Positions 40,649 through 64,000 of a DNA stretch of 64,000 nt are shown piece after piece. Below the pieces are notes generated by a model. The model made no database searches. It was not told the DNA's origin and saw nothing but the letters and a program-made list of their open reading frames with translations. The position numbers and the translations under genes were made by a program. Location of the stretch: assembly GCA_902571865.1 (NCBI GenBank), contig CACGDO010000005.1, positions 1,486 to 65,485 of the forward strand, in the 5' to 3' direction. The DNA is from an uncultured Alphaproteobacteria bacterium. Its GTDB lineage: Bacteria > Pseudomonadota > Alphaproteobacteria > HIMB59 > GCA-002718135. Position 1 is the first letter of the stretch. Each line of letters opens with the position of its first letter.

Positions 40649-41539
40649 ATGAAAATTGGTATTGATGTAGGTGGTACCAAAACTGAGGGTATTCTTTTAG
40701 ATCCAAATGGAATTGAAATAGATAGAAAAAGAATTAATACTGAAAAAAGTTATGATGGAACAATTAAGGGAATACTGTCCATTATAAAACATTTTGAAGA
40801 TAAACACGGCAAAGCAGAAACTGTTGGTATGGGAATGCCAGGAGCCATATCAAATGATACAGCTTTAATTAAAAATGCCAATTCTATATGGTTAAACGGC
40901 AAACCTTTTAAGCAAGATTTAGATAAAATTCTAAATAGAAATGTGAATTTGGAAAATGATGCTAATTGTTTTACTCTTTCTGAAGCAGTAGATGGAGCTG
41001 GTAAAGGGTTTGAAGTTGTTTTCGGTGTTATTATAGGAACTGGTGTAGGCGGTGGTATCAGTATCAATCAAAAAGTTATAAGAGGTCGTAATAGCATAAG
41101 TGGAGAATGGGGACATATAGTTTTGCCTAGCAGAACAGAAGATGAAAAAAAATATGTTAAAAAATGTTATTGTGGAAAAGATGGGTGCTTAGAAACCTAT
41201 ATATCTGGACCAGGGTTTTCATCTGTTTATAATTTACGTTTCAATAAAAATTATAATTCACATCAAATATTAGATGGTTATAATAATAAAGAAAAAGATA
41301 GTATCTTTGCACTAAATCAATATGTCGATCATTTAGCAAGAGGATTGTCTTTAGTTTGTAATATTCTTGATCCAGATGTGATAGTTTTGGGTGGAGGTAT
41401 GTCAAACATCGATTTTATTTATGAAAATATAAATGATGCTCTAAAAAAATATGTTTTTACAGATACGCTTCACACAAAAGTTGTAAAAAATATTCATGGT
41501 GATTCAAGTGGCGTAAGAGGAGCTGCTTGGCTTTCTTAA
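40649..41539 (+). CDS. ROK-family sugar kinase (fructokinase Mak-like)
   Basis: GIDVGGTK, ENDANCF, GTGVGGG, GEWGH, CYCGKDGCLE zinc motif. Confidence 0.9.
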   Translation: MKIGIDVGGTKTEGILLDPNGIEIDRKRINTEKSYDGTIKGILSIIKHFEDKHGKAETVGMGMPGAISNDTALIKNANSIWLNGKPFKQDLDKILNRNVNLENDANCFTLSEAVDGAGKGFEVVFGVIIGTGVGGGISINQKVIRGRNSISGEWGHIVLPSRTEDEKKYVKKCYCGKDGCLETYISGPGFSSVYNLRFNKNYNSHQILDGYNNKEKDSIFALNQYVDHLARGLSLVCNILDPDVIVLGGGMSNIDFIYENINDALKKYVFTDTLHTKVVKNIHGDSSGVRGAAWLS

Positions 41540-42987
41540 ATACCACCCATTGAAATATATTTTATAGTTAAATAGTCATCAAGGCCATAACGAGAACCTT
41601 CTCTTCCCATTCCTGATTCTTTTACACCTCCAAAAGGCACTTCTGCAATTGTTGGTAGTCCATTATTGATAGATACAATCCCATATTCAAGTGCTTCAGC
41701 TACTCTCCAAATTCTTCCTATGTCTCTTGAATAGAAATATGAAGCTAATCCATATGGTGTATCATTAGCCATTTTAATCACCTCATCATCACTAGAAAAT
41801 TTATAAAGAGGTGCAACAGGTCCAAATGTTTCTTCAAAAGTTATTTTTGCCTTTGTAGATACATTTGAGAGAACAGTTGGTTGATAGAAATTACCACCAA
41901 GCGAATGCACATCTCCACCAATTGCTATTTTAGCTCCGGTATTTACTGCATCTTGAACATGATCAATTACTTTTTCTAAAGAGGATTGATCAATTAAAGG
42001 ACCAGATACAATTCCATCTTCAAGTCCATTACCCACTGTTATTTTACTGACTTCATTTGTAAATTTTTCTAGGAATTCATCATAAATATTTTCATGGACA
42101 AAAATTCTATTTGAACAAATACATGTTTGACCACTATTTCTAAATTTACTTTGAAGTGCGCCTGCAACAGCTTCATCCATATCTGCATCATCGAAAACAA
42201 TAAAGGGTGCATGACCACCAAGTTCCATAGAAACTTTTTTTACTGTTGAGGCACTTTGCTCTAAAAGTATTTTTCCAACCTCCGTAGATCCTGTAAAAGA
42301 AATTTTTCTTACAATTGGGTTACTTGTTAGCTCTTTACCAATCTCACTTGCCGATCCAGTGATTACATTAAATACACCATCTGGAAAACCAGCTTCTTTA
42401 GCAAGCACTGCTACAGCTAGTGCTGAATAGGGTGTTTGGCTTGCTGGTTTAACAACAGTAGTACAACCAACAGCTAGAGCGGCTGCACATTTTCTTGTGA
42501 TCATTGAATTTGGAAAATTCCATGGAGTTATTGCTCCCACAACACCAACAGGTTGTTTAATTATTACAATTCTTTTTCCAGGTCTTGGATCAGGAACTAT
42601 ATCACCATACACTCTTTTTGCTTCTTCAGCATAGAACTCAATGTAAGAAGCACCCATTAGTATTTCACCCTTTGCTTCAGCTAGAGGTTTACCTTGCTCA
42701 ATAGTCATTATTTTAGCTAAATCATCTGCATTTTCTGTAATTAACTCACCCCATTTTTTAAGAATAACTGATCTTTCTTTCGCAGTAGTTTCTTTCCAGG
42801 TTTGGAAAGCAGTATTGGCATCATCTACAGCTTTTTTAGTTTCTGAAATTGAGCATTTTGGGACGTTGCCAATAATTTCAAGAGAGGCTGGATTATTTAC
42901 CTCAAGAGTTTCACCTGAAGAACTGTTAACCCATTCCCCATTTATAAAACATTTTTGTTTAAAGAGTGATTTGTTATTTAATTCCAT
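41536..42987 (-). CDS. gabD: NAD(P)-dependent succinate-semialdehyde dehydrogenase family (GabD/Ssd-like)
   Basis: ITPWNFP, FTGSTEVGK, ELGG, GQTCIC, EETFGP, PFGGVKESGMGREG. Confidence 0.85.
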   Translation of the reverse strand: MELNNKSLFKQKCFINGEWVNSSSGETLEVNNPASLEIIGNVPKCSISETKKAVDDANTAFQTWKETTAKERSVILKKWGELITENADDLAKIMTIEQGKPLAEAKGEILMGASYIEFYAEEAKRVYGDIVPDPRPGKRIVIIKQPVGVVGAITPWNFPNSMITRKCAAALAVGCTTVVKPASQTPYSALAVAVLAKEAGFPDGVFNVITGSASEIGKELTSNPIVRKISFTGSTEVGKILLEQSASTVKKVSMELGGHAPFIVFDDADMDEAVAGALQSKFRNSGQTCICSNRIFVHENIYDEFLEKFTNEVSKITVGNGLEDGIVSGPLIDQSSLEKVIDHVQDAVNTGAKIAIGGDVHSLGGNFYQPTVLSNVSTKAKITFEETFGPVAPLYKFSSDDEVIKMANDTPYGLASYFYSRDIGRIWRVAEALEYGIVSINNGLPTIAEVPFGGVKESGMGREGSRYGLDDYLTIKYISMGGI

Positions 42988-43003: not shown

Positions 43004-43030
43004 GCATAGTTTTAAATTAAGGAAAATATA

Positions 43031-44134
43031 ATGACAATAGTTAATTCTTGGAATGAATGGGATCCATTAAGACATGTTATAGTTGGAGCAGTTGAAAATG
43101 CCAACATACCTCCAATGGAACCGGCGCTTGAACCAAAAATAAGTAAAGATAGTGGTATGGCAGGATCTCACGGACCACGTTCACAGGAGTCAATTGATAA
43201 AGCAAATATACAATTAGAAAACTTTGTTAAAATATTAAATTCCCTAAATATAAAAGTTGATAGACCAACACCTATTGACTTTTCTCAGATTATCAAGACA
43301 CCCGATTGGTCTAATGATGGTATGTTTGGTTGTATGCCTCCAAGAGATGTTATTCTTACTGTAGGAAATGAAATGCTAGAGGCGCCAATGTCTTACAGAT
43401 GTAGATGGTTTGAGTACCTTGCTTATAGGCCACTACTTGAAAAATATTATTCAGAAGATAAAAATATGAGATGGGAGTCGGCACCTAAACCAAGATTAAC
43501 AAATCAATCTTATAAGTCTAATTATCTTCCTAAAGGTATAACGGAAGAAGAACGATATAAAAAAATCGAAAATAGAGACATGATATTGACTGAAAAAGAA
43601 CCACTTTTTGATGCAGCAGAAATTTTACGTTTTGGAAAAGATCTTTTTTATCATAACAATTTTACATCAAATTTAAGTGGTTTAGATTGGTTAAGAAGGC
43701 ATTATCCAAATCATCGTGTTCATCAAATTAATTTACCAGGTGATTTAATTCCAACTCACATTGATGCATGTTTTACTCCCATTAAACCAGGAGTTATAAT
43801 TATTAATCCGAATAGAAAAATATCATCAGAGCAAAGAAAAATTTTTGATGATAATAAATGGGAAATTCATGAAGCAGCACCTTCTATTCATAATAGTCCA
43901 CCACCTATGTGTTATTCATCAATCTGGTTGTCAATGAATGTTTTGATAATTGATCCTAAAACTATATGTGTCGAAGCAACAGAAGAAAAAATGATTAAAC
44001 AAATGGAAAGTTTTGGATTGGATGTTATTCCTGTTCCTTTTAGAGACGTTTATGCATTTGGGGGTAGTCTACATTGTGCCACAACTGATGTTCATAGAGA
44101 GGGTGAGTGTGAGGATTATTTTCCAAGTCAATAA
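43031..44134 (+). CDS. Amidinotransferase (pentein superfamily, AGAT/StrB1/SxtG-like)
   Basis: VNSWNEWDPL, PRD, FDAA (catalytic Asp), HID (His), GGSLHCAT (Cys nucleophile). Confidence 0.92.
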   Translation: MTIVNSWNEWDPLRHVIVGAVENANIPPMEPALEPKISKDSGMAGSHGPRSQESIDKANIQLENFVKILNSLNIKVDRPTPIDFSQIIKTPDWSNDGMFGCMPPRDVILTVGNEMLEAPMSYRCRWFEYLAYRPLLEKYYSEDKNMRWESAPKPRLTNQSYKSNYLPKGITEEERYKKIENRDMILTEKEPLFDAAEILRFGKDLFYHNNFTSNLSGLDWLRRHYPNHRVHQINLPGDLIPTHIDACFTPIKPGVIIINPNRKISSEQRKIFDDNKWEIHEAAPSIHNSPPPMCYSSIWLSMNVLIIDPKTICVEATEEKMIKQMESFGLDVIPVPFRDVYAFGGSLHCATTDVHREGECEDYFPSQ

Positions 44135-44889
44135 TGAATAGTTTTAATCAAAATAATTTTAAAGCCAATTTAAATGACACAAACTTTTCTAGAATTGGTA
44201 TAATTACACTATCAACGGATTTTACCATAGAGCAGGATTTTAGAAAAATTTGCCATAATTTACCAGTTGATCTATTTTTTAATAGGATACCTTTTTTAAA
44301 TCCTCTAACTCATGAAAATTATATGAGAATGGCTGATCATCTTACAGAAACAACAAACCAAATACTACCCAATGAAAAAATACAAGTTGTAGCGTATGGA
44401 TGTACTTCGGGTACTATTGAAATTGGTGAAAAAAGAATAAGATCTGAAATTTTCAAGGCTAAACCTGATGCTTTAATTACTACACCTATTACAGCAGCTG
44501 TCAAAGCACTTAAATTGTTAAACCATAAAAAAATTGCTGTCCTTACTCCTTATCCAAAAGATGTTAATGTTAAAGTTTACAAATATTTAATTGAAAGTGG
44601 ATTTGAAATTAAATCATTTAGTTCATTTAATTTAAATTATGATTCGGAAATTGCCAAAGTTACTCATGATAGTTTAATGCGAACAATTTCTTCAATTAAT
44701 TTAATAGATGTTGATAGTATTTTTGTATCTTGTACTGCATTAAAAGTAATTGATATTATCGAAACATTAGAGTCAAAATTAAGCACAGATATCATTTCAA
44801 GTAATCAAGCTATTATTTGGGATTCATTAAGATTATCTAATATTAATCAAAAAATTGATGGTTTTGGTAACCTATTTAAATTACATTAA
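44134..44889 (+). CDS. eutA: EutA-like Asp/Glu racemase-maleate isomerase family protein
   Basis: RIGIITLSTD, paired catalytic cysteines YGCTSG and VSCTAL, SSNQA; precedes eutB/eutC-like genes. Confidence 0.72.
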   Translation: MNSFNQNNFKANLNDTNFSRIGIITLSTDFTIEQDFRKICHNLPVDLFFNRIPFLNPLTHENYMRMADHLTETTNQILPNEKIQVVAYGCTSGTIEIGEKRIRSEIFKAKPDALITTPITAAVKALKLLNHKKIAVLTPYPKDVNVKVYKYLIESGFEIKSFSSFNLNYDSEIAKVTHDSLMRTISSINLIDVDSIFVSCTALKVIDIIETLESKLSTDIISSNQAIIWDSLRLSNINQKIDGFGNLFKLH

Positions 44890-44901: not shown

Positions 44902-45864
44902 TTGATTACACTTCAACAAATACAAGATGCACATAAGAAAATTTTACCTTATGTTAATTATACACCATTAATTAATTCTAATTTCTTATCAAAAAATACT
45001 ACAGTAAAACTAAAGTTAGAAAATTTTCAAATCACTGGTTCATTTAAGTTAAGAGGCGCTGTTAATAAACTTCTTTCTTTAAGTGAAGATGACAAAAACA
45101 AAGGAGTCATTGCAGTTTCTACAGGGAATCACGGCAAAGGCGTTGCTTATGCTTCAAAAGTATTGGGCATTCAATCAACAATATATATGTCTTCAATGGT
45201 TCCAGAATATAGAAAAGAGGCTATTCAAAAATTAGGGGCTAAAGTAGAAATTATTGGAAAGAATAGTGATGAAGCTGATTTGTATGCTAAACAAATTGCG
45301 AAAGAAAAAAATATCCCACTAATTCATCCTTTTGATGATGAAGATATTATAATAGGGCAAGGTACAGTTGGACTTGAAATGCTTACTGAATTTCCCGAAG
45401 TTGATACAGTAATTATACCAACATCTGGTGGCGGTCTTATATCTGGAATTGCTCAGGCTATTAAACTTCAAAAACCTAACACAAAAATTATTGCCGTATC
45501 TATGGAAAGAGGCCCCTCAATGTATGAAAGTCTAAAAGAAGGTAAGCCTGTTGATGTAGAGGAAACTGAAACTTTAGCTGATTGTTTAGGGGGTAGTATT
45601 GGTTTAGATAATAAATTTACATTTAATATTGTACAAAAATACGTTGATGACTTTGTTTTAGTAAGTGAAGAAAAAATAGCTGAGGGAATTAGAATAAACT
45701 TTTTAGAACATAAAATTGTATCTGAAGGTGCTGCAGCAACAAGTGTTATGGTTGTTAAAGAAAAATTAACATCGCACTTAGGAAAAAATATAATTTGTTT
45801 AATTTGTGGTGGAAATATTGACTCGGAACTATTTAATAAAGTTTTAAGCCATGCTCATCCTTAA
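44902..45864 (+). CDS. eutB: EutB-like PLP-dependent dehydratase (Ser/Thr dehydratase family)
   Basis: TTG start; TGSFKLRGA, STGNHG, GGGL, and the EutB-type LGGSIGLDN segment. Confidence 0.8.
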   Translation: MITLQQIQDAHKKILPYVNYTPLINSNFLSKNTTVKLKLENFQITGSFKLRGAVNKLLSLSEDDKNKGVIAVSTGNHGKGVAYASKVLGIQSTIYMSSMVPEYRKEAIQKLGAKVEIIGKNSDEADLYAKQIAKEKNIPLIHPFDDEDIIIGQGTVGLEMLTEFPEVDTVIIPTSGGGLISGIAQAIKLQKPNTKIIAVSMERGPSMYESLKEGKPVDVEETETLADCLGGSIGLDNKFTFNIVQKYVDDFVLVSEEKIAEGIRINFLEHKIVSEGAAATSVMVVKEKLTSHLGKNIICLICGGNIDSELFNKVLSHAHP

Positions 45865-46825
45865 TAAAAATGATATTATTCAACATGTAAATTTGAATAA
45901 AAATCTCATACCAATAATAGAGGAGGCTTTCATAAGTTTATCAAAGGGATTGGTAATGATGCCACCTATAATGAGAATTGATATTGAAAAATATCATGGT
46001 GAATCAGATGTTAAAGCTGCATACATTGAGGGTTTTGACAGTTTTGCAATAAAAATCGCTTCAGGTTTTTTTGATAATCCAAAACTTGGTTTGCCATCTA
46101 GTAATGGACTGATGGTTTTATTAGATTCAAAGACTGGAGTTGTAAAATCTGTTTTATTGGATGAAGGTTATCTTACAGATACTAGAACAGCTATAGCAGG
46201 AGCAATAGCTACAAAATATTTATCAAATCAAAATGCTAATTCTGTTGGTATTATCGGAGCTGGAATTCAAGCCAAATTACAACTTCAAGCAATAATGTTA
46301 GTTAGAAAAATAAAAAAAATAACAGTCTGGACAAGAGATGAGACAAAAGCAAACCAATTTATCGAAGGTTTTAAAGATTTAGATTTAGATTTGCATGTAG
46401 CTTCTTCTTGCAAGGAGTTGGCAAGCTTATCAGAAATAATCGTTACAACAACTCCTAGTAAAAAACCGCTTTTGCAATTTGATTGGATAATTAAAGGAAC
46501 TCACATAACAGCAATGGGATCAGATGCAGAACAAAAAAACGAATTAGATCCTCAGTTGTTAAAACATTGCGATCAATATGTACCTGACAATCAATTACAA
46601 ACAAGTGTTTTGGGTGAATTACATCATGCTTTAAAACAAAATATAATTTCTTCTAAAGAAAAATTTAATGAACTTGGCGATATTATTAACGATCCAAGCT
46701 TAGGAAGAAAAAATAAAGAAGATATAACAATATGTGATTTGACAGGAACTGGCGTACAAGATACTGCAATAGCAAGATTTGCTTATAATCTTTGTAAAAC
46801 AAATAATTTAGGCATCAATATTTAA
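45851..46825 (+). CDS. eutC: EutC-like ornithine cyclodeaminase/mu-crystallin family protein
   Basis: MPPIMRIDI..GESDVKAAY, GFFDNPKLGLPS.NG, GYLTDTRTA, DLTGTGVQD. Confidence 0.82.
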   Translation: MLILNKNDIIQHVNLNKNLIPIIEEAFISLSKGLVMMPPIMRIDIEKYHGESDVKAAYIEGFDSFAIKIASGFFDNPKLGLPSSNGLMVLLDSKTGVVKSVLLDEGYLTDTRTAIAGAIATKYLSNQNANSVGIIGAGIQAKLQLQAIMLVRKIKKITVWTRDETKANQFIEGFKDLDLDLHVASSCKELASLSEIIVTTTPSKKPLLQFDWIIKGTHITAMGSDAEQKNELDPQLLKHCDQYVPDNQLQTSVLGELHHALKQNIISSKEKFNELGDIINDPSLGRKNKEDITICDLTGTGVQDTAIARFAYNLCKTNNLGINI

Positions 46826-46828
46826 TTT

Positions 46829-48271
46829 ATGAGTCAAGCAATAATAAAAAAAACGTCTGATTACTTCAAATCAAAAGGAGTTGTCTTGCCAAGTATTAGT
46901 GAACTTCAAGACCCTCAAATTATTAATGATGATATTAAAAATTCTCTAAAAAAAATAAATAATAATGATATCAATCCTCTTAACCTCTTTAGAGTTCATT
47001 GGTTTAATAAAAGAGATCAATCAGGTTTTGGAAATGAGCCTGAATATATTGTGCTTCCAACAGAATTTACAGGTGTTAAGGCAAAGATAATTGTAAATAT
47101 GGGACGATATTTTCCCTTAATAACAGCTCATAAAGTTTTGGCAGCTTATGGTTGTTTGCTTCCAAGAATATTGAATGGTACTTTTGATTATGAAAAACAT
47201 AAAGCAGTTTGGCCTTCAACAGGAAATTATTGCCGGGGTGGAGTAGCAATATCTCGGATAATGGGTCTTAATAGTATTGCAATACTTCCTGAAGGAATGA
47301 GTAATGAGAGATTTGAATGGTTGAATAATTGGGTTGAAGATAAAAAAAATATCATAAAGACAAAAGGCACAGAAAGTAATGTTAAAGAAATTTACGATGC
47401 TTGTAATGAATTAAAAAAAGATAATCAAAATGATATCATAAATCAATTTGATGAGTATTATAACTATGGCATTCATCGTTCCGTAACCGGTCCATCTTTT
47501 GAAAAATCATTTCTTAAAGTTAAAGGTAACAGTAATTTAACTCCTAGGTTTTACGTAAGTGCTTCAGGATCAAGTGGTACTCTAGCAGCAGGAGATTATC
47601 TTAAAGATAAATTACAGACGAAGATTGCAGTTGTTGAAGCTTTGGAGTGCCCAACTTTGCTTCATGGCGGTTATGGTGAACATAATATACAAGGAATTGG
47701 TGACAAACATGTTCCCCTTATTCATAATGTAATGAATACAGATTTTGTCGTAGATGTCACTGATCAAGCTACCAATAATCTAAATATGATTTTTAATACT
47801 GAAATAGGAAAAAAGTTTTTAATTGAGAAAAAAAATTTTGAGCCTGATTTTGTTTCACGACTTCCTGAATTTGGCTTTTCAGCAATAGCAAATATATTGG
47901 CATCAATAAAACTAGCTAAATATATGGATTTAAATAGTGATGACGCAATTATAACGGTCGCTACAGATGGTGCAGATTTATACATGTCAGAATTAAATAA
48001 GACCATTGCTGATTTTAAAAATAATTATGATGAAATAGTTTGTGCTGAACTATTTGGAAAACACCTATCAGGAATATCTACTGATAATATGCTAGAACTT
48101 TCTTACCTGGACAAGAAAAGAATATTTAATTTAGGTTACTTTACTTGGGTAGAGCAACAAGGTGTAAGTCTTGAAGAATTTGAAAAAAGAAAAGATCAAA
48201 AATTTTGGAATTCACATTATGAATATATGCTTTCTCTAGACAATAAGATTAAAGAATTTAATAATATGTAG
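46829..48271 (+). CDS. Fold-type II PLP-dependent enzyme of unknown specificity (480 aa)
   Basis: AHKV (PLP Lys), WPSTGNY, SGSSGTL phosphate loop, HNIQGIG cysteine-synthase-like motif. Confidence 0.75.
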   Translation: MSQAIIKKTSDYFKSKGVVLPSISELQDPQIINDDIKNSLKKINNNDINPLNLFRVHWFNKRDQSGFGNEPEYIVLPTEFTGVKAKIIVNMGRYFPLITAHKVLAAYGCLLPRILNGTFDYEKHKAVWPSTGNYCRGGVAISRIMGLNSIAILPEGMSNERFEWLNNWVEDKKNIIKTKGTESNVKEIYDACNELKKDNQNDIINQFDEYYNYGIHRSVTGPSFEKSFLKVKGNSNLTPRFYVSASGSSGTLAAGDYLKDKLQTKIAVVEALECPTLLHGGYGEHNIQGIGDKHVPLIHNVMNTDFVVDVTDQATNNLNMIFNTEIGKKFLIEKKNFEPDFVSRLPEFGFSAIANILASIKLAKYMDLNSDDAIITVATDGADLYMSELNKTIADFKNNYDEIVCAELFGKHLSGISTDNMLELSYLDKKRIFNLGYFTWVEQQGVSLEEFEKRKDQKFWNSHYEYMLSLDNKIKEFNNM

Positions 48272-48274
48272 GTT

Positions 48275-49429
48275 ATGAAAACTCAGTCATTACATAACCA
48301 ATTAGTAGAATGGCGTCATGATCTTCATATGCACCCACAATTAAGTTTTGAAGAAGAGTATGCTGCAGCAAAAGTATCAACACTTCTAAAAGAATTTGGA
48401 ATAGAAGTTCATTCTGGTATTGCCAGAACTGGAGTAGTTGGAATTTTAAAAAAAGGAAATAGTTCAAATTCAATAGGTATAAGAGCTGACATGGATGCTC
48501 TTCCTATACATGAAACTAATAAGTTTAGTTATAAGTCCAAGTTTGATAACAGAATGCATGCATGTGGACATGATGGTCACACAACAATGTTATTAGGTGC
48601 AGCAAAATATTTATCAGAAAAAGGTAACTTTAACGGTACGGTATATTTTATTTTTCAACCTGATGAAGAGAATACATTTGGTGCAAGAACAATGATAGAT
48701 GAAGGATTGTTTGATAAATTTAACATTGATGAAGTTTACGCTATGCACAATATTCCTAACATGGAAATTGGAACATTTGGTACAAGAAATGGAGCTATTA
48801 CAGCCAGTGAAAATTTATTTGAAATTGAAATAAAAACTAAAGGTGGGCACGCTGCATTACCTCATATGGGGGTAGATGCAATAACTGTTGGTTCTCAAAT
48901 AGCTGTAGCACTTCAATCGATAGTGTCTAGGAAATTAAATCCAGCAGACAATGGTATAGTGTCTATTACTGAATTTATAACCGATGGTAAAAAAAATGTT
49001 CTGCCAGGTATGGTAAAAATGACTGGTGACGCGAGAGCTTTATCAAAAGAAACAAATGAAAAAATTGCTTCAAAAATGTTACAAATTGTCGAAGGGATTT
49101 GCAATGCACATGGTGTTAATGGTAGTGTTAAATATGAAACAGCCTGTCCTGTAACTTTTAATTCAAAAAATCAAACTGAGTCTGCAACAAAAGCTGCAGT
49201 TTCTTTACTTGGTAATGATAAATGTAATGGTAATATAGAACCTCGTTTATTCTCAGAAGATTTTTCTGTTATGGCAAATGAAAAACCTGGCTGCTTTGTT
49301 TTAATGGGTAACGGAACATCAGAGCAGCATTCCAGACCTTTACATGCTGATAATTATGATTTTAATGACGAATTATTAGTCATAGGTTCTTCATATTGGA
49401 CTGAATTGGTAGAACAACAATTAAAATAA
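48275..49429 (+). CDS. M20D-family amidohydrolase (hippurate hydrolase-like)
   Basis: IRADMDALP, MHACGHDGH, FQPDEE, GGHAA.PH, SEDF, LH. Confidence 0.9.
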   Translation: MKTQSLHNQLVEWRHDLHMHPQLSFEEEYAAAKVSTLLKEFGIEVHSGIARTGVVGILKKGNSSNSIGIRADMDALPIHETNKFSYKSKFDNRMHACGHDGHTTMLLGAAKYLSEKGNFNGTVYFIFQPDEENTFGARTMIDEGLFDKFNIDEVYAMHNIPNMEIGTFGTRNGAITASENLFEIEIKTKGGHAALPHMGVDAITVGSQIAVALQSIVSRKLNPADNGIVSITEFITDGKKNVLPGMVKMTGDARALSKETNEKIASKMLQIVEGICNAHGVNGSVKYETACPVTFNSKNQTESATKAAVSLLGNDKCNGNIEPRLFSEDFSVMANEKPGCFVLMGNGTSEQHSRPLHADNYDFNDELLVIGSSYWTELVEQQLK

Positions 49430-50587
49430 ATGTTTTCTGAAAACTTAAATAAACTAAAGAAAAAAATGTCTGAGAACAATATTGATCTCTCAATTATAAC
49501 TGATGATGACTCGATATATTATTTCACAGGATACCATGACTTCCTTCATATGGATTTTTATCGACCAACATTATTAGTTGTTTCAAATGATCATAAAACT
49601 TATTTAATTACACCTCTTCTTGATGTTTTATTAGTACCAGAATCTTGTCCTGTAGATATGGTTGAAACATGGAATGATGGTATTGGAAATGAATGGAGAG
49701 AATTATTACCTCAAATCATCAATCAGCATAAAAATATTTTTATTGAAAAATTTAAAATTAACCCAATGGTTAAGAGTTATTTAGACGAATTACTTAAAGA
49801 CCATCCTGGGGATTTAACCAAATTAATAGATAATATAAGAATGATTAAATCTAATCATGAATTGAATATAGCTCGTCATGCCGGCGAAGTTGGTATGGCT
49901 ATGATGGAGGCAGCAAAAAAAACAATTGGCCATAATGTTCCTGAGTATGAGGTTGCACTTGCACAATCACAAGCTGGAACAAGAAAAGCTGCAGATCTTT
50001 TAAAAGAATTTTATCCTGATAATATCAATATGTCTCCAAATATTCACTTTTTACCTGTTATGACATCGGGTCATGATTTACCTAAAACTCACCATCGTGC
50101 TTCAACCAAAATTATAAAAAAAGGTGATCCAGTATTCGTATGTTATTGTGGTTCTACAAATTTCCATAGGTTTAAATTAGGTTTTGACAGAATATTTTGG
50201 GTAGAAGAAATTCAATCCGATGAACAAATAAAAGCTTTTGAGACTGCAGTTAAATCTCAAAAAGCTGCTCTTGAAATTCTTGGCCCTGGAGTAACAGCTG
50301 AAGAAGTTCATGCTGCTTATGCAGATACTATACAGTCTGAGGGATACCCTTATCCTACATTTCGATGTGGAAGAGGTACAGGCTTTAGCTTTTTAGAGGA
50401 ACCACAATTAGTAGTTGGTAATAAAACAGTACTGGAGCCTGGAATGGTATTTGCCGTTGATGGCGGGGCAAGTGCAAATAATTTTAGATCACAAGTTGGT
50501 GATAGTTTTATTATAACAGAAGAAGGATACGAACAAATAACACATCATTCTAAAAATATTGATGATCTAATAATTCCACATGGATGA
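49430..50587 (+). CDS. M24 pita-bread-fold hydrolase, metal-independent (creatinase/ectoine-hydrolase-like)
   Basis: Creatinase-type N-domain (YFTGY), R.IKS..E linker, C-domain lacking the usual D/D/H/E/E metal ligands. Confidence 0.75.
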   Translation: MFSENLNKLKKKMSENNIDLSIITDDDSIYYFTGYHDFLHMDFYRPTLLVVSNDHKTYLITPLLDVLLVPESCPVDMVETWNDGIGNEWRELLPQIINQHKNIFIEKFKINPMVKSYLDELLKDHPGDLTKLIDNIRMIKSNHELNIARHAGEVGMAMMEAAKKTIGHNVPEYEVALAQSQAGTRKAADLLKEFYPDNINMSPNIHFLPVMTSGHDLPKTHHRASTKIIKKGDPVFVCYCGSTNFHRFKLGFDRIFWVEEIQSDEQIKAFETAVKSQKAALEILGPGVTAEEVHAAYADTIQSEGYPYPTFRCGRGTGFSFLEEPQLVVGNKTVLEPGMVFAVDGGASANNFRSQVGDSFIITEEGYEQITHHSKNIDDLIIPHG

Positions 50588-51605
50588 AATCACAGTATTT
50601 AACACACATTGCTGTGGTGAAATTGGGGATGTTGTAACTGGAATTAAAGGCTTGAATTTTAAATCACCTGAAGAAGCTTCTAAAAAACTTTTTTTAGATA
50701 AAAAATGGAGAAATTTTTTTCTAAATGAACCTCGAGGAGGGGTCTTTAAACATTGTAATATTATTTTAGAACCTTCAAATAAAAATGCAGATGCTGGATT
50801 TGTAATTATGGAACCAGAAGATAATCCTCCAATGAGTGGGTCAAATGCAATTTGTGTAACGACAGTCTTATTAGAAAAAAATATTGTTCAAATGAAATAT
50901 CCTAAAACCATGCTTACACTTGAAGCTCCAGGTGGTTTAATAAAAGTTGTTGCTGATTGTGAAAATAAGAAAGTTAAAAGTGTCACTTTAACTAATCTTG
51001 CCTGCTTTGCAGATAAAATAGATGTAGATTTAAAGACTAAAAATTATGGTACAATTAAAGTAAGTACTGCTTTTGGAGGTGACAGTTTTTTAATTTGTAA
51101 TGCTAGTGATTTTAATCTTAAAATTGAACCAAAGAATGCAAATAAATTTGTAAATGTTGCAAAAGAATTATTAAAAGAAGCAAACGCATCTATAGGATTT
51201 GAGCATCCTACTATTAATGGATTAGACTATCTTTCCTTTTGCCAATTTATTGAACCCTTAAAAAAAAATAATCAATCATTACTTACAGGATTAAATACAG
51301 TTGTTATACGACCTGGGAAACTTGATCGTTCACCTTGCGGCACAGGCACTTCAGCAAGATTAGCAGTAATGAAAGAAAAAAATGAAATACAAATAAATGA
51401 AGAATTTATATCAAAGTCTATTATAGGATCTTCATTTAACGCAAGTATTGAAAAGGAAATTAAAATTAATAACAAAAATTGTATTATTCCAAAAATAACA
51501 GGTAGTGCATTTATTACTGGAAAACAAAGTTTATATATCGATAAGGATGATCCTTTTCCAGAAGGTTATAGATTAAATGACACATGGCCAGATTCATTAA
51601 GTTAA
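50580..51605 (+). CDS. Proline racemase superfamily enzyme (Ser/Cys active-site pair)
   Basis: EPRGG, PMSGSNAIC, DRSPCGTGTSA, ITGSA. Confidence 0.88.
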   Translation: MDEITVFNTHCCGEIGDVVTGIKGLNFKSPEEASKKLFLDKKWRNFFLNEPRGGVFKHCNIILEPSNKNADAGFVIMEPEDNPPMSGSNAICVTTVLLEKNIVQMKYPKTMLTLEAPGGLIKVVADCENKKVKSVTLTNLACFADKIDVDLKTKNYGTIKVSTAFGGDSFLICNASDFNLKIEPKNANKFVNVAKELLKEANASIGFEHPTINGLDYLSFCQFIEPLKKNNQSLLTGLNTVVIRPGKLDRSPCGTGTSARLAVMKEKNEIQINEEFISKSIIGSSFNASIEKEIKINNKNCIIPKITGSAFITGKQSLYIDKDDPFPEGYRLNDTWPDSLS

Positions 51606-51681: not shown

Positions 51682-52947
51682 ATGACAAAATTTAATGCCT
51701 GGAATGTAATTAAAAACGGTTTAAATGGTCAGTCTTATTGGACTAGACAATGGCGTGATCCAGAACCAAAAAGTAGTTATGACGTTGTAATAATTGGGGG
51801 AGGTTTGCACGGTCTTGCCACAGCATATTATTTAGCAAAGAATCATAATATAAAAAATGTAGCTGTCTTAGAAAAAGGCTGGATTGGTGGAGGAAACGCT
51901 GGACGTAATACCACTATTGTAAGATCAAATTATATGATGCCAGGCAACCACGAATTTTATGAACATTCTTTAAAGTTATGGGAAAATTTAAGTCACGAAT
52001 TAAATTATAATGTAATGTTTAGCCAACGAGCTCATGTCTCGTTATTTCATAGCCCTGGTGCTAAAGATTCAGTTTCACGGATTTATAATATTATGCGACT
52101 CCACGGAACTGATGCAGAACTTTGGGATTTAAAAACTTTAAAGAAAAAAATTCCGCATTTAAATTATCATAATTCTAGATTTCCAATACTTGGAGCTGCA
52201 GTTCAAAAAAGAGCAGGCAATGCAAGACACGATGCAGTTGCATGGGGTTATGCAAGGGCTGCAGATACATTAGGTGTAGACATTTTGCAAAATTGTGAAG
52301 TTACAGGTTTTACAAGAAAGAATGGAAATATTGAAAGTATTCAAACTTCAAGAGGAATTATAAAAGGAAAGAAAATAGGATTTGCTGTTGCAGGTAATAC
52401 TTCAGTATTATGGCAAATGGCAGAATTAGGCAACCTGCCAATTGAGTCTCATAAACTACAAGCATTTGTATCTGAGGCTGTTAAGCCACTCCTAGATCAG
52501 GTTGTTGTTTACGGTGTAGGTGGTGCACATTTCTATATATCGCAGTCAGACAAAGGAAGTATGGTGTTTGGTGGTGATCTTGACTGGTATAAATCATATG
52601 CTCAAAGAGGAAATCTTCCTATGGTTCAAGATGTTGCTGAAGCGGCCATGGCAATATTTCCTTCACTTGGGAGAATAAGATTACTTCGTCATTGGGCAGG
52701 TGTTATGGACATGACAATGGACGGATCATTTTTTATTTGTAAAACACCGATATCTAATCTCTATTTAAATGCTGGTTGGAACTATGGGGGTTTTAAAGCA
52801 AGTCCAGCATCAGGTTGGTATTTTGCCGACTTAATTGCAAATGAAAGCCCGCATAACTACGTGCAAAATCATAATTTAGAAAGATTTGAAAAAGGTATCA
52901 ATATAGATGAACGTGGTGCAGGACCTGATCCGAAATTGCACGGTTAA
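51682..52947 (+). CDS. soxB: Heterotetrameric sarcosine oxidase family beta subunit
   Basis: GGGLHG, GRNTTIVRSNY, ARHDAVAW, GWNYGGFKA. Confidence 0.9.
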   Translation: MTKFNAWNVIKNGLNGQSYWTRQWRDPEPKSSYDVVIIGGGLHGLATAYYLAKNHNIKNVAVLEKGWIGGGNAGRNTTIVRSNYMMPGNHEFYEHSLKLWENLSHELNYNVMFSQRAHVSLFHSPGAKDSVSRIYNIMRLHGTDAELWDLKTLKKKIPHLNYHNSRFPILGAAVQKRAGNARHDAVAWGYARAADTLGVDILQNCEVTGFTRKNGNIESIQTSRGIIKGKKIGFAVAGNTSVLWQMAELGNLPIESHKLQAFVSEAVKPLLDQVVVYGVGGAHFYISQSDKGSMVFGGDLDWYKSYAQRGNLPMVQDVAEAAMAIFPSLGRIRLLRHWAGVMDMTMDGSFFICKTPISNLYLNAGWNYGGFKASPASGWYFADLIANESPHNYVQNHNLERFEKGINIDERGAGPDPKLHG

Positions 52948-56186: not shown

Positions 56187-56742
56187 ACATTCTGCACTAG
56201 AAACAATTTATAAGGTTGGAAAATATTCATCAAGCGAGAAACAATCTCTAACATTTAAAGAATTAAAAAGTTTAGAAATTTTGCAAATTGCTTGTTGGCC
56301 TGACAAAATTGATGAAATGAATAATTTAATATCAAAAGAACTAAAAATTAAAAATATTCCTAGTTTTAATAAAGGGATAATTTTTGAAAATAAATCATTA
56401 TGGAGAATGGAACCTTTGAAATGGTGGCTATTTAATAAAGAAATTGAAATAAGTGAGCAAATCGCAACAATTTTAGACATGTCTCATGCTTTTACAGGTA
56501 TTGAAATTACAGGAGATAATTCATCATTATTTTTAAATAGACATCTTCCAATTGATTTAAGAGCTAGGAATTTTCCAGATCTATCTTCTGCTAGCACAGC
56601 TATTCATCATGTCAGTGTTAAGCTATTTAAAATAACTTCCAATAACTACTGTCTATATATACCAAGAGGTTTTGCTTTATCAATTTGGGAGATCCTTCTT
56701 GAAACAGCGGATCAGTTTGGATACGAAGTATTAGAGAGATAG
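56179..56742 (+). CDS. soxG: Sarcosine oxidase family gamma subunit
   Basis: Position after soxA with 8-nt overlap; DMSHA...I.ITG, PIDL, RGFA..IW..L. Confidence 0.8.
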   Translation: MHRHSALETIYKVGKYSSSEKQSLTFKELKSLEILQIACWPDKIDEMNNLISKELKIKNIPSFNKGIIFENKSLWRMEPLKWWLFNKEIEISEQIATILDMSHAFTGIEITGDNSSLFLNRHLPIDLRARNFPDLSSASTAIHHVSVKLFKITSNNYCLYIPRGFALSIWEILLETADQFGYEVLER

Positions 56743-56816
56743 ATAAGTTATCTTGGGGTAACGGAAACTGGTTATAAACTAATTACTAATGTATTTAGCA
56801 ATTTGCATATAGTAAA

Positions 56817-57497
56817 TTAATCATTTGCATCACCACCTCCAGCACCTTTGGCTCTAGATTCCTCTGACTCAGGTACAAAAGTTCTAAAAGCTATCTTAGA
56901 TATTTGATCCCAAGATTTTTTATCAGGATTTATGCCTTCAGATAGCAAATTATTTATATTTGATGATGGAATATTAATATCTAACTTTTGTTCATTTAAA
57001 ATATTTTTTGTAAGTAAAAGATCAAAATTTCTTTGATAATTTGTAGAGATAATATCTCTATTAATACTAATATTTTTATTTGTTATTTGTGCATTAACTT
57101 TTTGATCTAACAAAAACTGTGAATTGATATTTTTTTTTGCATACTTATAAAGCAAAGGTATTAGGAATATGGGATCATTGCAATTTTTTATAGTTAATAT
57201 TAAATTTTCTTTTTTATCTACTTTTGATATCAAATAATCAATTAATCCTGGCCCTATCATCAAAAAAGATTTATTTTTACAATCAAACTCATCATTTATA
57301 TTTGATGGATCTATGCTAGCATTAAAAGTGTTATCTAATTCTTTAATTTTTAATGTTAATAATTTGATTCCATCTAAACCAAGTATTTCAAGCCAAGTTG
57401 TAATAAATGCAGCGTCTTCATCTGATCCATATGTGAACCCTAATCCTGAAAAAGCTCGCTGTGAATTAGTGTAGACTTCATAATAAGAGTAACTCAC
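56817..57497 (-). CDS. DUF3726-like protein of unknown function (probable GTG start 57497; track start 57533)
   Basis: N-terminal S..EV....QRAF.GLG..YG..EDAA....WL...GLDG pattern; C-terminal SEESRAKGAG. Confidence 0.55.
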   Translation of the reverse strand: MSYSYYEVYTNSQRAFSGLGFTYGSDEDAAFITTWLEILGLDGIKLLTLKIKELDNTFNASIDPSNINDEFDCKNKSFLMIGPGLIDYLISKVDKKENLILTIKNCNDPIFLIPLLYKYAKKNINSQFLLDQKVNAQITNKNISINRDIISTNYQRNFDLLLTKNILNEQKLDINIPSSNINNLLSEGINPDKKSWDQISKIAFRTFVPESEESRAKGAGGGDAND

Positions 57498-59221: not shown

Positions 59222-60208
59222 ATGTCAAAAATAAGTGAAGATATACTTCTAATTGATGGATTGGAATATTGTAACTGGAATAGGGAATTATTTGAAAATG
59301 CCCACCAATCTGGATTAACTGCAATTCATGCGACATTAGTGTATTGGGAAAATACTGAAGAGTCTTTTGAAAAAATAAATTATTGGCACCGTCTTTTTAA
59401 AGAGCATCATGATATTATTGCTCACGCAAAAACTACCGAAGATATTTTGGATGCTAAAAAAAATAATAAAGTTGCAATTATTTTTGGTTTTCAAAATTCT
59501 GCTCCTATTGCGAATGATATATTTTTAATTGAAAAATTTTTTGAAGCAGGTGTAAGATTTATGCAACTCACCTATAATAATCAAACCCCACTCGCTGGAG
59601 GATGTTTTGAACCTAAAGACTCAGGTGTTTCACGATTTGGAAAAGCTGTTATTGAAGAAATGAATAGACTTGGCATGATTGTAGATTTAAGTCATGCAGG
59701 AAAGCAAACTTGTCTTGACGCTATTGAAGTCTCAAATAAACCTGTGGCAATTTCTCATGCTAACCCAAATTTCTTTCATAAATCTAAAAGAAACATTGAT
59801 ACTGATATTTTACAAAAACTTGTTAAAAAAAATGGTTTTATTGGGTTAAGTTTATATCCTTACCATCTTAAAAATTTAGGTGATTGTACCATAGAAGATT
59901 TTTGTGAAATGATTAAGGAGCTAGTAAACCTAATTGGTGAAGACAATATTGGAATAGGGTCTGATCTTTGTTTAAATTGGCCTGATGATGTAGTTATGTG
60001 GATGAGAAATGGAAACTGGACCAAAAATATCGACTATGGAGAATCTAAAGATAAAAATCCAAAATGGCCTAAGTTACCAAGTTGGTATAAACAACCAAGT
60101 GACTTAAATAATTTTTTTTATTTAATGTGTGAAAATAATATTCCAGAAAAAGTTTCTACAAAAATAATAGGTCAGAATTGGTTTAACTTCATGAAAAATC
60201 AATTTTAG
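59222..60208 (+). CDS. M19 membrane-dipeptidase-like amidohydrolase (non-canonical metal site)
   Basis: QLTYN, MNRLGMIVDLSH, AISHAN, GIGSD; the N-terminal HxD and bridging Glu are replaced. Confidence 0.82.
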   Translation: MSKISEDILLIDGLEYCNWNRELFENAHQSGLTAIHATLVYWENTEESFEKINYWHRLFKEHHDIIAHAKTTEDILDAKKNNKVAIIFGFQNSAPIANDIFLIEKFFEAGVRFMQLTYNNQTPLAGGCFEPKDSGVSRFGKAVIEEMNRLGMIVDLSHAGKQTCLDAIEVSNKPVAISHANPNFFHKSKRNIDTDILQKLVKKNGFIGLSLYPYHLKNLGDCTIEDFCEMIKELVNLIGEDNIGIGSDLCLNWPDDVVMWMRNGNWTKNIDYGESKDKNPKWPKLPSWYKQPSDLNNFFYLMCENNIPEKVSTKIIGQNWFNFMKNQF

Positions 60209-61068
60209 TTTCTACGACTAATAAAAGAAGCTGATAGCAAACTTATAATTACAATCGAAGCACCAATCATTTGATAAGTTTCTAAATTTTCTTTTAATAA
60301 AAAAACAGCTCCAAGAACACCTACCACTGGTTCTAAATACAAAAATAAAGCAGTATATGATTGTCCAATCTTTGGGATAGCAATTAATTGTGATAAAAGT
60401 GCAAAGCTATAACATACCGAAGGAATTATAATTAAAAGATAAATATTGAAATCAAAATTAAAATTTAATGAAAAAAATATTTTTAATATTACAAAGAAGA
60501 AAAAAGTATTAAAAACATTTATAAAGATATTAATTGGTATTGGTGAAATACCTTTAATAGACATTTTTTGATTTACTATAATCATACTAGTTGATCCAAG
60601 TGAGGCAAGAAAAGCTAAAAGAATACCTACTATATTTATGACTTTAAAAGATGGTCCTATAACTAAAACAATTCCTAAAAATGTAACAAAAAAGAGAATC
60701 TTTACAGTTAATGAAATTTTTTCTTTATCGACAATAATAGAAAATAAAAGAACATATATTGGATAGAGGCAAAAAATAAGAATTGTTAAACTAACTTCAA
60801 TAAATATAACTGAAGTCAATAATCCAAGCGTTAATAATATTGAACCCGCTGAAATAGATAAAAAGTATTTTAGGTTCTTTTTAAAAATTTCTAATAGATT
60901 CTTTTGATAAGGGATAAAAGGTAATATAATTATCGCGGCAACTGCGTAACGTAAAAAAATAGTTAATGCTACAGAGGCGCCTGAATTATATGCTATTTTT
61001 GTAGTAGGGCCAATTAGGCCAAACAAAATTCCAGCAACTAAAGCAAAAATAACTCCAAATATGAACAT
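60205..61068 (-). CDS. EamA/DMT-family transporter
   Basis: About 10 hydrophobic segments in two repeats, LRY, YLEPV. Confidence 0.85.
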   Translation of the reverse strand: MFIFGVIFALVAGILFGLIGPTTKIAYNSGASVALTIFLRYAVAAIIILPFIPYQKNLLEIFKKNLKYFLSISAGSILLTLGLLTSVIFIEVSLTILIFCLYPIYVLLFSIIVDKEKISLTVKILFFVTFLGIVLVIGPSFKVINIVGILLAFLASLGSTSMIIVNQKMSIKGISPIPINIFINVFNTFFFFVILKIFFSLNFNFDFNIYLLIIIPSVCYSFALLSQLIAIPKIGQSYTALFLYLEPVVGVLGAVFLLKENLETYQMIGASIVIISLLSASFISRRN

Positions 61069-61133
61069 TTTTTAAATTAACTTTTGACTATTTGTTTTCA
61101 TGCAGTTATTCAAGCTTCATTACAAAATATATT

Positions 61134-62222
61134 ATGAATGACACATCTCAAAGTTTCGTTAAATTTGAAAAGATTGATAAAAGTTATGATGGAGAAGTAC
61201 TAGTAGTAAAAAACTTAAACTTGGATATTGCTAAGGGTGAGTTTGTAACAATGTTGGGTCCATCAGGATCAGGTAAAACAACAACTTTGATGATGTTAGC
61301 TGGTTTTGAAACACCTACAAACGGTGAAATATTTTTAGATACTAAACCAATAAGTAAAATACCTCCTTATGAAAGAGAAATTGGAATGGTATTTCAAAAC
61401 TATGCTTTATTTCCCCACATGACTGTTGCAGAAAATTTATCATTCCCTCTAGAAGTAAGAAAAATTTCAAAACCAGATATTAAAGAAAAAGTGCAGAAAG
61501 CTCTTGATATGGTTGAGTTAGGAAATTTTGGTACTAGATTTCCTGCTCAATTATCTGGTGGACAACAACAAAGAGTTGCTTTGGCTAGAGCACTTGTATT
61601 TGAACCACGCCTTGTATTAATGGATGAGCCTTTAGGTGCACTTGATAAGAATTTGCGTGAACAGATGCAATACGAAATCAAACATATTCATGATAGGATT
61701 GGTATAACAGTTGTCTATGTTACACATGATCAAAGTGAAGCATTAACAATGTCCAACAGAATTGCAGTATTCAATGATGGTGTAGTACAACAATTATCTA
61801 CTCCTGATATTTTGTATGAAAAACCTGAAAATTCTTTTGTTGCTAAATTTATAGGTGAAAATAATACATTAAATGGTGTTGTTAAAGAAGTAAATGGTTC
61901 GTCATGTACTGTTGAATTAGATGGTGGTTTTGGAATGGTGAAAGCGTTAAAAATTAATGTGAATGAAGTTGGAGAAAAAACTCAACTATCTATTAGACCA
62001 GAACGTGTTTCAATAGACAGTTCTACTTCTGGCTCAAACAATTTTTCAGGAAAAATTGAAGAATTAATTTACCTAGGTGATCATATTAGAGCTAGGCTTG
62101 ATGTTTGTGGAAATAATGAGTTTATAGTAAAAGTCCCTAATGAAGGAAGTTTTAGTCATAAAGAAGGAGATCAACTTAATTTAAGCTGGGATTCCGAGGA
62201 TGTTAGAGCTCTAGATATTTAA
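61134..62222 (+). CDS. ABC transporter ATPase, PotA-like with TOBE domain
   Basis: GPSGSGKT, VFQNYALFPH, LSGGQQQR, LMDEPLGALD, YVTHDQ; ATG at 61134. Confidence 0.93.
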   Translation: MNDTSQSFVKFEKIDKSYDGEVLVVKNLNLDIAKGEFVTMLGPSGSGKTTTLMMLAGFETPTNGEIFLDTKPISKIPPYEREIGMVFQNYALFPHMTVAENLSFPLEVRKISKPDIKEKVQKALDMVELGNFGTRFPAQLSGGQQQRVALARALVFEPRLVLMDEPLGALDKNLREQMQYEIKHIHDRIGITVVYVTHDQSEALTMSNRIAVFNDGVVQQLSTPDILYEKPENSFVAKFIGENNTLNGVVKEVNGSSCTVELDGGFGMVKALKINVNEVGEKTQLSIRPERVSIDSSTSGSNNFSGKIEELIYLGDHIRARLDVCGNNEFIVKVPNEGSFSHKEGDQLNLSWDSEDVRALDI

Positions 62223-62353
62223 ATCTATTTTTTTATCGGTATTTGGCCAAAATTTTTTATTTTTACCTCTTTTTTTTCATTTAATGACATGTTATTAAAC
62301 CACCATTACGGACATAATCTTAAGATTAATTAATAAAAAATAGGAGGATATAT

Positions 62354-63457: not shown

Positions 63458-63488
63458 GCTTGATAAATTAAACTTTGTAATTTAATCT

Positions 63489-63514
63489 AAAGGCGAGAAT
63501 TATCTCGCCTTTTT
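63489..63514 (+). terminator. Intrinsic terminator/stabilising hairpin after the SBP gene
   Basis: AAAGGCGAGA-atta-TCTCGCCTTT followed by TT(A)TTT. Confidence 0.8.
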
Positions 63515-63528
63515 ATTTGGAGGTTACC

Positions 63529-64000
63529 ATTTCTACGGCTGAATTATTAACTACAGACGGCATTCCACTCAAACAAAGCCTTCGAAAAGCTGAAAGAAGA
63601 AATAAACTTCGTGCCTTTCTACTAGTATTTCCTTTACTTCTTTTTATTATTGTAACATTTGTAATGCCTATTGGTGACATGCTTCTAAGAAGCGTTGATG
63701 ATAGTCAAATTAATTCAGTATTTTCTAATACTTTTGATGAATATAAAAACTGGGATAAAGAAGCTGATGAACTGCCGCCTGAAGAAGTTTACAAAAGTCT
63801 TTTTTTTGAATTAGCAAATGGAGATAAGAGGCAGATAGGTAAAGCCTTAACAAGAATGAATTATGCTAAATCTGGTTGGAAAAGTTTAATAAAAAAAACT
63901 ACAAGAGAAATAAAAAAAATTGTTAAAAAGGGTGAAGAACCAGTTTCGTATAAAGATACATTTATTAAAATAAATAAGCTCTGGGCAGATCCAACTTACT
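63529..64000 (+). CDS. ABC transporter permease, PotB-like, 3'-truncated; start at ATT 63529 (or TTG 63517)
   Basis: Open frame to the window end: TTDGIPLKQSLRKAERRNKLRAFLLVFPLLLFIIVTFVMPIGDML (TM1) followed by a periplasmic loop; missing from the ORF track because no stop is in the window. Confidence 0.8.
   Translation, partial: MSTAELLTTDGIPLKQSLRKAERRNKLRAFLLVFPLLLFIIVTFVMPIGDMLLRSVDDSQINSVFSNTFDEYKNWDKEADELPPEEVYKSLFFELANGDKRQIGKALTRMNYAKSGWKSLIKKTTREIKKIVKKGEEPVSYKDTFIKINKLWADPTY

Follow-up and report, generated by a model that had tools for sequence, protein, structure and literature searches.

The window analysed here is a stretch of 64,000 nucleotides from the genome of an uncultured alphaproteobacterium of the HIMB59 lineage (contig CACGDO010000005.1; genome G000 with 1.63 Mb in 23 contigs, ca. 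31% GC, and an assembly that is 92% complete), and it carries a single-copy gene for an amidinotransferase, here called AT, that heads an operon of catabolic appearance (Table 1). Residues 4-364 of AT align with human arginine:glycine amidinotransferase (AGAT; 1jdw/1jdx) at an E-value of 5.7e-77 in a phmmer search against all PDB chains, with SxtG (7e-65), HsvA (1e-60) and StrB1 (1e-56) as the next-best solved relatives. This similarity is far above chance and, at the level of sequence, confirms AT as a full-length member of the AGAT family. The catalytic triad of the human enzyme maps onto AT as D254 to D194, H303 to H243 and C407 to C349 in the phmmer alignment (with the map checked by script), bearing out the original prediction that the catalytic Asp/His/Cys motifs are intact, and all three residues are invariant or nearly so in an alignment of 50 sequences. 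The human residues D170, E233, D305, R322, S354 and S355, which we take to be the positions that bind the guanidinium group and the amino acid and whose ligand roles were reportedly described by Humm et al. in 1997, are all conserved as D106, E173, D245, R262, S296 and S297 of AT.

Structure modelling, which had been proposed as a check, gave an AlphaFold2 model of high confidence from the 50-sequence alignment (mean pLDDT 95.1, pTM 0.93) that Foldseek superimposes on human AGAT (1jdw, 2jdx and 4jdw) with TM-scores of 0.90-0.91 (0.91 at best) and root-mean-square deviations of 2.0-2.2 Å. By this model, AT has the AGAT fold of pseudo-fivefold beta-beta-alpha-beta modules. Transferases match it at E-values of 1e-42 to 1e-34, whereas hydrolytic members of the superfamily (arginine deiminase, DDAH and ArgZ) score around 30 orders of magnitude lower (E ca. 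1e-12, TM ca. 0.6, 10-15% identity). Comparison of AT with its orthologues gave dN/dS ratios of 0.05-0.09, at dS >1, and we read these values as strong purifying selection on a gene that encodes a working amidinotransferase. Sequence, triad, ligand residues and predicted fold all place AT in the AGAT-type family, and a lid of the human type is the one trait among those compared that it lacks. Neither Pfam nor NCBIfam matches AT at their thresholds (12 bits for PF02274, whose cut-off is 22.8), and the sub-threshold Pfam signals are PAD_porph and ADI, the latter at 12 bits and below its cut-off. Close homologues (e.g., P0005, P0009, P0015, P0084 and P0102) are named "serine/threonine protein kinase" by NCBI/GenBank and "glycine amidinotransferase" by JGI. 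With no model reaching threshold and a kinase label in circulation, the AT family is thus missed or mislabelled in automated annotation.

The lid of human AGAT, an enzyme with a broad range of acceptors, reads D298-P-N300-P-M302 (PMC4887976), and AT, where I240 aligns with N300 and T242 with M302, does not carry a lid of this human type; the original prediction had correctly noted that the segment before the catalytic histidine reads I-P-T-H and differs from the human N-P-M-H at both positions. Among other family members, AmtA (arginine:lysine) has D-M-H-P-M (PMC4887976), SxtG has E-A-L ahead of the catalytic histidine in our alignment and its E255 is cited within a charged pocket (PMC12371840), and CyrA has D-I-F-P-S (PMC4887976, PMC3684758). 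The latter enzyme is narrow for arginine and glycine, and altering Phe245 or Ser247 widens its range (PMC4887976, PMC3684758). The D-L-I-P-T of AT combines a hydrophobic with a small hydroxyl residue as the F/S pair of CyrA does, which is similar chemistry though not identical residues. Judged from the motif, the AT lid appears to follow the CyrA pattern without any new chemistry, and since all other AGAT ligand residues are conserved as well, the lid alone gives no ground for loss of the arginine/glycine (or ornithine/guanidinoacetate) couple. The suggestion in the original prediction that these two residues point away from the glycine/arginine pair is therefore not supported, all the more as orthologues vary at both positions.

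This variation became apparent in a survey of 270 retrieved AT homologues. The lid reads [D/E]-L-[I/M/T]-P-T in a group of 77-100% identity to AT, made up of genera close to that of the window and this genus itself, D-P-F-P-T among homologues of 63-65% identity and D-[P/M/A]-Y-P-I in the largest group (61-66% identity). Lids seen with the full operon described below are DLIPT, DPFPT (L005 and L042; L-numbers denote loci and G-numbers genomes) and DMYPI (L039), and DPYPI is found at the same locus in reduced operons and also elsewhere. Since orthologues in the same operon can carry F/T or Y/I, the I/T pair is not fixed by context, and the idea that the lid state follows operon type was rejected because both DMYPI and DPFPT occur with the full operon.

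In a FastTree phylogeny of 121 sequences, which held no named characterised enzymes, AT falls into a marine clade of 54 rows, within which the nine rows of the window's group cluster with full support on a long stem (0.29 changes per site). Just beyond the marine clade, the nearest groups have unnamed rows with D-[IL]-[FY]-P-S lids and may, going by this motif only, be relatives of CyrA or SxtG; cluster look-ups for these outgroup rows returned "glycine amidinotransferase" or no name. We found 24 positions that are fixed differently between 56 sequences of the window's group and 150 from the remainder, including (in human numbering) 299, 300, 302 and 307 around His303/Asp305, 257 near Asp254, 318 near Arg322 and 351 near Ser354/355. 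Where such discriminating positions were compared by eye (e.g., 246, 273, 299, 307 and 351), human AGAT mostly sides with the larger marine group, so that the window's group looks derived. The I-P-T lid is thus probably a derived, genus-level variant of an ancestral Y-P-I lid of the marine clade, and the long stem and the 24 fixed differences would fit a possible shift of specificity in the window's clade. The I-P-T lid may tune which small substrate fits, and this would not imply loss of the arginine/ornithine couple.

Table 1. Features of the AT locus and its surroundings (positions in the window).
Feature	Position	Strand	Remarks
SSADH-type aldehyde dehydrogenase (ALDH) gene	41536-42987	-	TIGR01780, 726.7 bits (cut-off 646); divergent from AT
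AAGGA ribosome-binding motif	43020-43024	+	6 nt before the AT ATG; read from the sequence
AGAT-family amidinotransferase (AT) gene	43031-44134	+	Single open reading frame, 367 aa, ATG start
Asp194 codon (AT)	43610-43612	+	Motif LFDAAE
Lid D238-L-I-P-T242 (AT)	43742-43756	+
His243 codon (AT)	43757-43759	+	D-L-I-P-T-H-I-D-A = residues 238-246, including Asp245
Cys349 codon (AT)	44075-44077	+	Motif GGSLHCATTD
EutA-like protein gene	44134-44889	+	Asp/Glu/hydantoin racemase superfamily; TIGR02990, 211.7 bits (cut-off 318)
Six genes: EutB-like dehydratase, EutC-like cyclodeaminase/reductase, 480-aa fold-II pyridoxal phosphate (PLP) enzyme (PLP480), M20 amidohydrolase, diverged M24 hydrolase, proline-racemase-family enzyme (ProRac)	44902-51605	+
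soxB	51682-52947	+	First gene of a sarcosine-oxidase-type soxBDAG cluster; TIGR01373, 605.9 bits (cut-off 529)
EamA-family transporter gene	60205-61068	-	Between homarine-type genes and the ABC importer
ABC importer genes	61092-63999	+	PotA-type ATPase, PotD-like binding protein (62354-63457), permease truncated where the window ends

AT and the dehydrogenase gene share a 43-nt divergent spacer that contains the AAGGA motif, and the AT stop codon overlaps the start of the EutA-like gene (TAATG), which suggests that the two are translationally coupled. The proteins encoded further downstream resemble enzymes of ectoine catabolism at some distance: the EutB-like (379 bits against 413) and EutC-like proteins (409 against 472) both score under their equivalog cut-offs, and the EutC-like protein exceeds a generic cyclodeaminase model (452.8 against 408). 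The M20 protein reaches 315 bits on DoeB2 (cut-off 550), and the metal-poor M24 protein reaches 57.5 bits on TIGR02993 (cut-off 613), the best score on this model in the genome, and is distantly creatinase-like (62 bits). The EutD, EutE and transaminase genes of ectoine clusters were not found in the window. The soxBDAG cluster begins 76 nt past the operon, and the ABC importer genes near the window end share 72%, 56% and 57% identity (tblastn) with importer genes of locus L066, where they lie inside an AT-creatinase-EutA-EutD-like operon of Pelagibacteraceae. The best PDB match of the window's binding protein is 8jv1 (E = 2e-70), followed at some distance by gamma-aminobutyrate (GABA)-binding proteins (4euo and 6dgv, ca. 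1e-35); a literature search on 8JV1 found nothing on its ligand. We note that the EamA-family transporter of the window is not close to the one that precedes AT in Pelagibacteraceae (no tblastn match at 1e-15).

Within its own family, AT is present without stop codons in 91 of 115 genomes, compared to 1 of 71 in the sister family. The full arrangement, in which the SSADH-type ALDH gene diverges from an AT-EutA-EutB-EutC-PLP480-M20-M24-ProRac-soxB series, is kept in L005, L039, L042-L044 and L126-L128 at 60-90% protein identity. The divergent ALDH/AT pair is kept in nine of ten loci examined in the order, with L040 and L041 as reduced examples, and the remaining one (L045 in G001) has no dehydrogenase match upstream of AT. 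The steadiest partners of AT in the order are therefore the divergent SSADH-type gene and EutA, and the AT-EutA adjacency recurs in Pelagibacteraceae (L096, L108 and L066). As a side observation, 6-9 kb including ABC-transporter genes are inserted within the operon at L127 (G022:C4, 5539-15371) and L126 (G067:C1, 7832-13780), with the L127 insertion carrying two tandem M24 genes whose products are merely 27-28% identical to the EutD-like protein discussed below. On a 17-kb contig, the sole AT carrier of the sister family (G122 in family f2, locus L043) has the complete operon, 88-93% identical to that of the window's genus, which suggests either recent transfer or a binning error.

A EutD-like gene, sister to ectoine hydrolase genes, is carried by the relatives G079, G106, G108 and G114, and its product matches the solved ectoine hydrolase DoeA at an E-value of 1e-109 but scores below its equivalog cut-off. 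In G079, which belongs to the window's genus, it lies between soxBDAG and homarine-type genes (L128; G079:C1, 16011-17183; 470 bits on TIGR02993), but it is absent at the matching spot of the window (ca. 56742-56817) and was found nowhere else in the 92%-complete assembly. The locus of G106 and G108 is reduced to the ALDH gene diverging from an AT-(EutA)-EutD-like-DmdA-like series, with PLP480 on another contig. We rejected the adjacency of AT and the EutD-like gene in G106 and G108 as an independent association because the island seen in G079 lets deletion explain it; the cases in Pelagibacteraceae remain independent.

Beyond the order, we scanned one genome per species and compared neighbouring proteins by tblastn. 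Clade members of 58-66% identity to AT are found in true Pelagibacter isolates and many single-cell genomes of Pelagibacteraceae as well as in Rhodobacterales (Shimia, Marivita and Paracoccaceae), SAR116, Filomicrobium, Magnetovibrio and others. The usual block in Pelagibacteraceae, around an AT orthologue of 58-62% identity, reads EamA-family transporter-[M24]-AT-[threonine-aldolase-like PLP enzyme]. The M24 protein of these loci is a genuine creatinase (E = 3.7e-154 to Pseudomonas putida creatinase 1chm) and is present in around 18 of them. The threonine-aldolase-family gene (Beta_elim_lyase, with a weak GntG-family match of 68.8 bits) directly follows AT at L057 (9107-10150) and in around 25 other loci of Pelagibacteraceae, and its product is a further potential glycine-yielding step. 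At L066 and L096, the order is AT-[creatinase]-EutA-EutD-like followed by genes for PotA, a binding protein and permeases, while AT-EutA at L108 runs into the contig end. The same type of importer is found divergent to AT at L049 and L051 (Filomicrobium and a relative). Across lineages, the recurring theme of uptake systems, M24 hydrolases that cleave amidino or amidine groups, and glycine-yielding enzymes looks like a degradative or salvage pattern and not one of natural-product synthesis. Neither guanidinoacetate methyltransferase nor natural-product genes were seen near AT in the loci inspected.

Because gene neighbourhoods in several lineages bring together importers, creatinase, sarcosine oxidase, coupling to EutA and the divergent SSADH-type gene, we favour, at about an even chance of being right, the reading that AT is an AGAT-type enzyme with a catabolic or salvage role that would move amidino groups between imported small guanidino compounds and ornithine. 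Following the ping-pong mechanism of the family, Cys349 would take the amidino group from a guanidino donor to form an S-amidino intermediate and the group would then be passed to an amine acceptor beneath the 300-flap lid. Going by genomic context, an imported guanidino compound and ornithine would give arginine without expense of ATP along with a de-amidinated amine of the glycine, sarcosine or GABA type. Guanidinoacetate or creatine-type compounds would be the most likely donors, with 4-guanidinobutyrate and taurocyamine as further possibilities, and the released amines could be processed by the sarcosine oxidase and the SSADH-type dehydrogenase encoded nearby.

Several observations weigh against this salvage role. 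The upstream BioY-ROK-ALDH order is conserved beyond the operon, with the unrelated BioY and ROK genes kept equally well, and since these streamlined genomes conserve gene order past operon borders, adjacency is weak evidence within the order. G106 carries EutA-EutB-EutC-PLP480 as a stand-alone block (L129; G106:C2, 5622-9731) on a contig other than that of AT; EutA-like genes thus number two in this genome, and the eutABC-PLP480 module can function with no AT adjoining it, so that AT would not be an obligatory step of it. The equal BioY-ROK synteny and this separate block together also weakened the argument from tight packing of the operon to joint function. In other bacteria, many members of the clade occur singly in unrelated contexts, with neighbours such as a TauD-family dioxygenase gene or one of the arginase family. 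As to host metabolism, G000 carries argG (450.9 bits; G000:C3:143734-144912), with one TAA in the matched stretch that is either the gene's own stop at the match end or an interruption, so that arginine synthesis is apparently intact and salvage not essential; AT as the sole arginine route was rejected on these grounds. No arginase was found in G000, the only ureohydrolase being of the agmatinase type, and a cycle of ornithine/arginine, arginase and urease is thus unsupported as stated even though urease is present. G000 also has no true creatinase (best match at 31% identity), and no GABA transaminase scores above cut-off in this genome, which encodes four class-III aminotransferases. Salvage by AT is in our view plausible but not obligatory.

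The alternative that survives best, though we consider it unlikely, is that AT adds or removes an amidino group on an intermediate of an ectoine- or hydroxyectoine-like pathway, for instance a diaminobutyrate-type product or a linear guanidino compound formed when the EutD-like or M24 enzyme opens a cyclic amidine or guanidine. AT indeed stands first in a row of genes for EutA-, EutB- and EutC-like proteins, an M20 protein similar to DoeB2 and an M24 hydrolase, its adjacency to EutA and the EutD-like gene occurs in two orders (L040 and L041; L066 and L096), and the close match of the EutD-like protein to DoeA fits as well. The neighbours of AT resemble EutA, EutB, EutC, the DoeB2-type deacetylase and the ssd-type dehydrogenase of known ectoine clusters (eutABCDE-ssd-atf and doeABCD), but these clusters are not known to include an amidinotransferase. 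To our knowledge, ectoine catabolism involves no amidino-transfer step, and the established pathway does without one, ectoine being an acetamidine rather than a guanidine, whereas the two aspartates that bind the terminal NH2 groups of guanidinium are conserved in AT. Furthermore, all Eut-like proteins of the window fall below their equivalog cut-offs, G000 has no EutD-like gene, the eutABC-PLP480 block of G106 stands apart from AT and most orthologues in Pelagibacteraceae have no eut genes nearby.

It is quite unlikely that AT serves ordinary biosynthesis, producing guanidinoacetate or some other guanidino solute as an arginine:glycine amidinotransferase, and owes its operon place to gene packing. 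In favour of this alternative, no solved structure is closer to AT than human AGAT, the ligand residues are conserved throughout, the lid chemistry resembles that of CyrA, a narrow arginine:glycine enzyme (PMC4887976, PMC3684758), D-[IL]-[FY]-P-S lids occur in the groups next to the marine clade and synteny in the order extends beyond the operon. However, the recurrent association with importers, genuine creatinase, sarcosine oxidase and hydrolases is a degradative pattern, the inspected loci have neither guanidinoacetate methyltransferase nor natural-product genes nearby, and making guanidinoacetate beside a creatine-splitting enzyme would be futile. AT resembles vertebrate AGAT/GATM (EC 2.1.4.1; 1JDW/1JDX) in fold, triad, ligand residues and roughly the length of the mature enzyme, but it is a bacterial protein without mitochondrial presequence, has D-L-I-P-T in place of D-P-N-P-M and heads a catabolic-looking operon, whereas AGAT serves creatine synthesis.

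We regard it as very unlikely that AT works on a sarcosine/creatine couple, in which sarcosine would be amidinated to creatine, or would receive amidino groups from any guanidino compound, before a creatinase-type M24 enzyme frees urea and restores sarcosine. We are aware of no amidinotransferase with demonstrated activity on sarcosine, the window's M24 protein is no more than distantly creatinase-like and many orthologues have no creatinase neighbour. What speaks for this couple is that the hydrophobic residue in place of Asn300 across the marine clade could give room for an N-methyl group, that a true creatinase adjoins AT in Pelagibacteraceae while the metal-poor M24 gene and soxBDAG lie near AT in the window, that G000 has urease and that a field isotope study in which creatine was labelled from sarcosine calls for "an unidentified enzyme" (PMC9321204). 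Finally, a hydrolase (deiminase or dihydrolase) that frees ammonia or urea from a guanidino compound is hardly credible. AT does share the superfamily fold and the Cys/His/Asp chemistry with arginine deiminase, DDAH and ArgZ and gives weak PAD_porph and ADI hints in Pfam, but the hydrolase matches are remote next to those of transferases and AT keeps a transferase-typical lid and the ornithine-binding residues; the purely hydrolytic activity raised in the original prediction is thus improbable.

Set against known systems, AT lies in surroundings foreign to the characterised members of its family. CyrA/AoaA of cylindrospermopsin synthesis likewise has a hydrophobic residue at the position of Asn300 and a small hydroxyl residue at that of Met302 (Phe/Ser versus Ile/Thr in AT), but CyrA sits in a polyketide synthase/nonribosomal peptide synthetase toxin cluster and AT with importers, hydrolases and oxidases. 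SxtG, HsvA, StrB1 and AmtA share family and triad with AT, but accept cationic or bulky amines, have other lids and are all encoded in toxin, antibiotic or virulence clusters. A further parallel is the uncharacterised transporter-(creatinase)-AT block of Pelagibacteraceae (L055-L114; 58-62% identity), which belongs to the same marine clade and like the window has AT beside transporters and M24 amidino-type hydrolases in glycine-yielding surroundings, i.e., creatinase and threonine aldolase in Pelagibacteraceae and sarcosine oxidase in the window. It differs by its D-P-Y-P-I lid and the genuine creatinase adjoining AT, whereas the window's genome lacks creatinase and has AT joined to a eutABC-like operon that faces the SSADH-type gene.

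In the searchable literature, we found no paper that pairs an amidinotransferase with SAR11, Pelagibacter, ectoine or creatinase, and none of these genes appears in the genome paper on AEGEAN-169. The sole match for SAR11 gives GATM as a marker of taurine-to-taurocyamine conversion but offers no evidence for it. Together with the conserved neighbourhoods, this agrees with the view of the original prediction that a catabolic-looking setting is unusual for the family. What sets AT apart from all characterised members is this setting in a widespread marine alphaproteobacterial clade tied to importers and catabolic enzymes, of which we could find no description in the searchable literature.

As a more speculative extension that we consider improbable but worth spelling out, the marine clade including its Ile/Thr-lid variant might represent a new physiological class, an ATP-free "amidino shuttle" of oligotrophic bacteria that moves amidino groups from dissolved guanidino compounds to a small carrier (ornithine, or sarcosine giving creatine), with the carrier then processed by an M24 amidinohydrolase as partner or through the arginine pool. 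If so, plankton auxotrophic for glycine could obtain both glycine and arginine through the shuttle, which could also be the "unidentified enzyme" behind sarcosine-derived creatine in seawater incubations (PMC9321204). The lid variants Y/I, F/T and I/T at one orthologous locus form a natural mutagenesis series for 300-flap specificity. Since neither Pfam nor NCBIfam detects the clade and GenBank gives it a kinase label, current metabolic reconstructions miss AT. SAR11-type bacteria dominate the surface ocean and rely on outside sources of glycine and reduced nitrogen. For such organisms, an amidino-transfer salvage of this kind would, if true, be an undescribed route by which guanidinoacetate, creatine and related guanidino compounds that animals and algae excrete are turned into glycine and arginine without ATP.

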